Below, piece after piece: positions 52,751 through 52,862 of a stretch of DNA of 64,000 bases. The position numbers and the translations under genes were made by a program. Numbering within the stretch: position 1 is the stretch's first letter; the number at the start of each line of letters is the position of its first letter. The notes beneath the pieces are model-generated. The model did no database searches. It was given only the letters and a program-made list of their open reading frames with translations, and was not told the origin of the DNA. Origin of the DNA: Bacteroidia bacterium (GTDB taxonomy: Bacteria; Bacteroidota; Bacteroidia; UKL13-3); NCBI GenBank assembly GCA_044353855.1, contig JBILBF010000001.1, forward strand, positions 642,233 to 706,232, written 5' to 3'.

Positions 52751-52862
52751 GGAAATAACGAATAACGAATAAGGAATAGCGAATAGCGAATAACGAATGG
52801 AGAATAACGAATAACGAATAACGAATAGCGAATACCGAATACCGAATCGAATAAGGAATAAC
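52751..52862. repeat. heptanucleotide microsatellite, ~14-15 tandem units of [A/G/C][C/G]GAATA
   Basis: Direct reading: aacgaat aacgaat aaggaat agcgaat agcgaat aacgaat ggagaat aacgaat aacgaat aacgaat agcgaat accgaat accgaat. Confidence 0.9.

Follow-up and report, generated by a model that had tools for sequence, protein, structure and literature searches.

Heptamers are the commonest class of long simple sequence repeat (LSSR) according to Mrazek, Guo and Shah 2007 (PNAS), as that study is summarised in PMC4679880 and PMC4692102. The same summaries credit it with a proposed origin of these repeats by polymerase slippage, and with the suggestion that the polymerase may interact with a DNA stretch of about 7 nt. 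MacGregor 2015 (PMC4679880) described long intergenic heptamer arrays in Gramella forsetii, Aequorivita sublithincola and Elizabethkingia anophelis, together with the TAACTGA repeats of Beggiatoaceae. Other heptamers are found in the same spacers. Close relatives have shorter, repeat-free spacers in the same gene neighbourhood. Rehm et al. 2015 (PMC4692102) reported G-rich heptamers: GGGAATC in Xanthomonas and GGGGAYT in Nostoc. These are intergenic, their function is unknown, and they vary extensively in length and sequence at loci shared between Xanthomonas species. Heptamer repeats of Calothrix PCC 7601 are among the examples that PMC4692102 cites. The contingency repeats of Haemophilus influenzae are short, slippage-prone and nearly perfect, and they lie in promoters or reading frames (PMC2651432).

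Here, we describe a heptanucleotide array with the consensus unit CGAATAA. It separates convergent genes for a T9SS-sorted surface protein and thiamine pyrophosphokinase (TPK) in a 64,000 nt stretch of Bacteroidia bacterium DNA, hereafter the window. Like the LSSRs of Mrazek 2007, in the outline that the two later papers give of them, the repeats considered here are tandem 7 nt units, mostly intergenic and longer than expected by chance. Unlike that set, in which the PMC4679880 and PMC4692102 summaries name no Bacteroidota among the repeat-rich genomes, they occur in a member of this phylum, where CGAATAA is merely one of many units. As in the Bacteroidetes arrays of MacGregor 2015, the focal array sits beside other heptamers, and congeners have shorter spacers between the same genes. 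It differs from the TAACTGA repeats of Beggiatoaceae in its unit and in lying downstream of both genes; theirs lie just upstream of a start codon. The array resembles the Xanthomonas and Nostoc heptamers in being an intergenic SSR that differs among close relatives at a shared locus. However, those G-rich units are quadruplex-capable. The focal array has AT-rich units, each with a single G on the plus strand, and hence no G4 potential. It shares with the Haemophilus repeats a short, tandem, slippage-prone organisation, but is imperfect and downstream of both neighbours.

Results

A phased heptanucleotide array between convergent genes

The features discussed are listed in Table 1. TRF detected 15.9 copies of the focal unit (82% matches, 3% indels, score 134). 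In the GAATANN register, 13 GAAT cores are perfectly phased between positions 52760 and 52844. A 2 nt deletion follows, and then two further units. The GAAT sequence is constant in every unit. Aside from the deletion, changes are confined to substitutions at the remaining three positions. Between positions 52750 and 52910, the autocorrelation (identity) at lag 7 was 0.73, compared with 0.21–0.33 at other lags. These data confirm the original prediction, made from the letters alone, of some 14 to 15 consecutive 7 bp units. They also support its view of the tract as a simple sequence repeat of the slippage-prone kind. Identical variant units were adjacent no more often than expected by chance (p = 0.24), so the expected trace of slippage was not demonstrated in the focal array. 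The predicted gene context was borne out by the Por_Secre_tail domain and by both TPK domains. A TonB-dependent receptor gene is next beyond TPK.

Table 1. Coordinates of the features discussed. Unprefixed positions are those of the window; in-gene arrays are given in the order HAL-like, HisRS, ValRS and FAD-reductase genes.
Feature	Position	Strand	Basis
T9SS-sorted surface protein gene, 1303 aa, convergent on TPK	48752..52663	+	Pfam Por_Secre_tail (T9SS sorting domain, at end)
Terminator hairpin, 16 pairs, A-run before and T-run after	52680..52715	.	Terminator scan; alignment with G001, G005
Period-7 array, consensus CGAATAA (AATAACG / GAATAAC registers), ~16 units	52754..52862	+	TRF, sequence, unit parsing
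Second heptamer block, ACTATNN / TATNNAC, ~5 units	52861..52899	+	TRF; G005 spacer shares part
Thiamine pyrophosphokinase (TPK) gene, 222 aa	52904..53572	-	Pfam PF04263 + PF04265, ORF list
Third heptamer tract (short, ACTATNN-type), divergent spacer 5' of TPK	53645..53678	+	TRF, sequence
In-frame heptamer array, HAL-like gene	L026:1576-1605 (G000 C4:51575-51604)		
In-frame heptamer array, HisRS	L348:4162-4192 (C4:53290-53320)		
In-frame heptamer array, ValRS	L025:1989-2018 (C8:133988-134017)		
In-frame heptamer array, FAD-reductase gene	L027:1423-1455 (C4:315422-315454)		

The array is invariant within one clone

A look-up of the exact TPK protein returned 14 contigs. Six long contigs, from different samples, were 100% identical to the window over 4–6.7 kb, including the array. 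Because the array is base-identical in these contigs, it is not an assembly artefact, and its consensus is stable within the clone. The hypermutability claimed in the original prediction was not observed. Copy number was unchanged in all six independent assemblies, which are consensus sequences of a single clone, carry no evolutionary signal and say little about mutation rate. The same clone is also represented by three short ENA contigs (L134, L135 and L136), which end inside the array, 92–99 nt past the TPK stop codon and just after three identical units. The assembler may have broken off at the repeat, or these ends could hint at read-level heterogeneity.

The invariance bears on one possible role. 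If the array were a contingency locus, changes in unit number would switch a neighbouring gene on a phase-variable basis. The neighbour is indeed a surface protein gene (T9SS cargo), a type that is often phase-variable, and SSRs are prone to slippage, as in Haemophilus (PMC2651432). We nonetheless judge this role extremely improbable. The array is downstream of both convergent genes, outside any promoter or reading frame. In addition, its repeats are imperfect, and it is identical in the six assemblies of the one clone.

Related heptamer tracts flank TPK

The second heptamer block abuts the CGAATAA block and ends 5 nt from the TPK stop codon. Its five CTAT cores are in phase (52862–52890). An inverted copy of the focal unit, CTATTCGC, had been placed at 52888–52895. 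The sequence is present; its true site is 52890–52897, inside the ACTATNN block, and it is not a separate feature. The tract upstream of TPK sits beyond a TATTTTG box, away from the TPK start. This box matches the Bacteroidetes -7 promoter consensus. In several metagenomic relatives, with TPK 63–67% identical, (CATAATT)-type heptamers reach the TPK start codon (L169:537-571; L193:1470-1495; L201:1458-1499; L143:118-147).

The two ACTATNN tracts flank TPK in direct orientation, with the 11-mer CTATTGACTAT common to both. As a substrate for recombination, they could allow the gene to be lost or duplicated, and a role in rearrangement has been speculated for the long Gramella arrays (PMC4679880). 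However, the homology is short, at about 11 nt exact. TPK has the same neighbours in six of six long assemblies. It was also detected in 26 of 41 related genomes, and no deletion or duplication variant was seen. Such a role for the tracts is highly improbable.

The array lies between the TPK stop codon and a shared terminator

A terminator scan identified the hairpin in Table 1 as the sole terminator-like site. An A-run precedes this hairpin and a T-run follows. Hence, it probably works in both directions. A search of Rfam 15 gave no family at the gathering score; the only matches were three below threshold, all on the hairpin. No promoter-like sites were found inside the array. If transcription ends here, the arrays would be part of the TPK 3' UTR.

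The array may then be an RNA element: the TPK mRNA would end in (UUAUUCG)n, an unstructured platform for a cold-shock or S1-type protein that binds single-stranded RNA, with effects on mRNA stability or termination. Its position, between the TPK stop codon and the only terminator-like hairpin, is consistent with this idea. So is the minus-strand RNA fold, in which pairing across the array is weak beyond the terminator hairpin. Furthermore, CspB of B. subtilis binds heptamer repeats, with one protein per heptamer (PMC4679880). Against this, the block is missing from congeners that have the same TPK and terminator, the units differ from one species to another, and arrays elsewhere have no consistent strand relative to flanking genes. 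We consider an RNA element unlikely.

Units turn over at the orthologous spacer

We compared the locus with its counterparts in congeners. In G001 and G005, the T9SS-cargo and TPK genes are convergent and the 34 nt terminator core is identical. The spacer between these two matches is about 60 nt, compared with about 180 nt in the home genome (G000). The CGAATAA block is missing from both congeners. G005 keeps four ACTATGG-type units beside the TPK stop codon. In G001, there is only a decayed heptamer-like spacer with one AAATAAC. The spacer downstream of TPK in G003 contains (AAATTCG)n and the inverse (CGAATTT)n. Hence, both the length and the unit of the heptamers have turned over at a single locus, with the block absent from G001 and G005 and other units present in G003.

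Because the congeners have other or decayed heptamers and lack the CGAATAA block, the spacer has been 7-periodic for some time, with a CGAATAA expansion that is specific to the G000 lineage among the sampled genomes. The suggestion that the array is old, drawn from the heterogeneity of its units, therefore holds in part. The tract has some age, given the ACTATGG-type units common to G005 and the decayed spacer of G001, but the CGAATAA block itself is absent from both.

Period 7 dominates tandem arrays in the home genome

The G000 assembly is 2.48 Mb in length. At a threshold of at least 4 copies, TRF reported 41 arrays of period 7, compared with 6, 10 and 9 arrays of periods 6, 8 and 9, respectively. 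At a threshold of at least 3.5 copies, period 7 was the clear mode, with 56 arrays; periods 5, 6, 8 and 9 had 10–16. Our own detector, which is period-neutral, found 20 arrays at period 7 and 0–7 at other periods. In a whole genome simulated with a third-order Markov model, it found no period-7 arrays.

With at least 3 copies required, G000 has 71 period-7 arrays. The non-coding DNA, about 8.5% of the total, holds 42 of these. Array density in spacers is about 17 times that in genes, as defined by crude, longest-ORF gene calls with start positions biased accordingly. Tandem, convergent and divergent spacers contain 30, 7 and 6 arrays, respectively, which is roughly proportional to spacer length (60%, 15% and 25%). 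There was no strand polarity in G000 with respect to flanking genes (G exceeds C in 10 arrays and C exceeds G in 17; A exceeds T in 17 and T exceeds A in 13). The units are diverse: the AAATTCG/TTCGAAA family accounts for 12 arrays, and TCTATCC, TCTCACA, AGCCAAA and several GACTAT-like units also occur. A perfect (TCTATCC)x9.3 tract (L030:1252-1316; G000 C6:471251-471315) fills much of a 105 nt spacer between same-strand genes, 13 and 27 nt from them. This tract is a better candidate than the focal array for true hypermutability.

The focal array is the longest of the 71, ahead of arrays with 9.3, 8.7 and 8.1 copies, and the sole CGAATAA array in G000. Locally, it is not special, being one among some 70 arrays of period 7. 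The original prediction had set a distinctive locus against a generic low-complexity feature scattered without positional pattern. Identical arrays are not scattered, since CGAATAA was found only once. However, heptamer arrays of various units are, with no preference for a type of spacer, and in spirit the generic picture applies.

Period 7 and CGAATAA in other genomes

We sampled 400 kb from each of four further genomes: a congener (G007), members of two other genera in the same family (G014 and G017) and a member of another family (G037). Period 7 peaks in all four samples: with at least 3.5 copies required, the counts are 11, 21, 33 and 4 in G007, G014, G017 and G037, respectively. Around TPK homologues at 80 metagenomic loci (249 kb), we counted 13 period-7 arrays and at most 4 at any other period. 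The best TPK identity in a metagenome scan for sister strains was 70%. A bias to period 7 is thus present in all five sampled genomes, which represent this family and a second one within the class, and it is also seen in numerous further bacteria. The G007 genome carries a 22.6-copy CTATCAA array (L052:6405-6562; G007 C1:1086405-1086562). Many of the arrays in the G017 sample have 10–12 copies (L068-L087), yet none matches either specific unit pattern.

Allowing up to 2 mismatches, (CGAATAA)4 occurs in 9 of 119 genomes of the family, none of them a congener. We examined eight such loci, from eight genomes. All are intergenic and unrelated, often next to other heptamer families. Exact (CGAATAA)4 was found at more than 119 loci in named genomes of Bacteroidota, Gammaproteobacteria, Cyanobacteria, Fibrobacter, Planctomycetota and others. 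Because the arrays occur at unrelated loci and across many phyla, CGAATAA is a generic SSR motif with many separate origins. Elsewhere in the family, CGAATAA arrays show variation within the GAAT core. The constant GAAT of the focal array could mean a constraint on the core; this was a post hoc test, to be read beside that variation. In genus g8, CGAATAA arrays adjoin dispersed, hairpin-forming, REP-like repeats (L016:1480-1720; L017:1200-1600; L019:1490-1830). Spacers of this genus hold heptamer arrays and small palindromic repeats together.

The distribution of the unit also bears on whether the array is a set of iterons, as had been suggested. The omega repressor of plasmid pSM19035 binds contiguous 7 bp heptad sites. 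By analogy, the focal units might form an unbroken run of heptads to which a DNA-binding protein binds cooperatively. The constant GAAT core and the 13 units strictly in phase would fit, and the plasmid system offers a precedent for contiguous 7 bp sites. However, no rep, par or small regulator gene is nearby, the neighbours encoding the T9SS cargo, TPK and TonB-dependent receptors. CGAATAA has a single site in the genome, the block is not kept in congeners having the identical terminator, and arrays of this unit are found in many phyla at more than 119 unrelated loci. In addition, GC skew is positive throughout the window. Because it never switches, neither a replication origin nor a terminus lies here. 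The iteron suggestion is not supported, and we regard it as very unlikely.

In-frame heptamer arrays in housekeeping genes

Short (TTCGAAA)n arrays also occur in frame within G000 genes, where they encode loops of NSKFEIRNSK-like peptides. The host genes encode ValRS, an aromatic amino-acid (histidine) ammonia-lyase (HAL-like), HisRS, an FAD-binding reductase, a GT9 glycosyltransferase and saccharopine dehydrogenase. The TTCGAAA unit is free of stop codons in all six frames, and units that are stop-free on both strands are used by 20 of the 27 coding arrays in G000. There is no bias in the TTCGAA hexamer of the sort expected from restriction avoidance (708 observed, 733 expected). We considered whether the in-gene arrays are clean insertions. 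This was rejected, as the site does not differ in length in congener orthologues.

In the ValRS loop, the same codons contain TTCGAAA in G000, TTCTCAA in G004 and G007, and TCCGAAA in G003. In alignments of the HAL-like gene, HisRS and ValRS, the arrays of genus g8 occupy the same columns. Within the HAL-like array, 8 of 8 codons for identical residues are nucleotide-identical between genera, compared with 55% elsewhere in the gene (Fisher p ~0.01, from comparisons that are not independent). Across the family, the HAL loop is aperiodic in g2, degenerate in g4, and a perfect array in part of g8, in G000 and in G007. A 7 nt unit is not a whole number of codons, so slippage by a single unit would shift the reading frame of these genes.

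Perfect (TTCGAAA)n arrays at orthologous loops in at least two genera, and identical HAL nucleotides despite diverged synonymous sites, raise a different reading. On these grounds, heptamer arrays of the family might not be passive debris of slippage. Instead, they might be kept or re-made by an active homogenising process at the sequence level. We think this rather unlikely. If true, the focal intergenic array would be an unconstrained product of the same active process.

Discussion

The cyanobacterial repeats of Calothrix PCC 7601 are known as STRR sequences. The focal array fits this heptanucleotide, LSSR or STRR-like class: its units are in phase, period 7 is in excess, the arrays are mostly intergenic and the units turn over. 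No gene is associated with it.

Our preferred interpretation is that the focal array is a lineage-specific heptanucleotide SSR, built by slippage, that is nearly neutral and probably without a dedicated function. We consider this reading likely. The array would have grown in place, inside an older spacer that already had a 7 nt periodicity, with replication slippage or unequal exchange as the most likely cause. We propose that it persists because its position is almost free of selection: past the TPK stop codon, before the shared terminator and between convergent genes. It would then be the longest local product of a bias towards forming repeats of period 7.

By itself, the focal array is of little weight. 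It adds one Bacteroidota lineage to the genomes with a period-7 repeat bias. Such a bias has been described since the cyanobacterial STRRs, and a mechanism is still missing. The in-frame (TTCGAAA)n arrays, at orthologous loops of housekeeping genes, are of more interest than the focal array. One spacer has units that differ among congeners, and coding loops keep the 7 nt period and their position while the unit changes. This spacer and the coding loops are concrete, alignable cases of concerted evolution, which could serve to determine its rates and to address what sets the 7 nt period.
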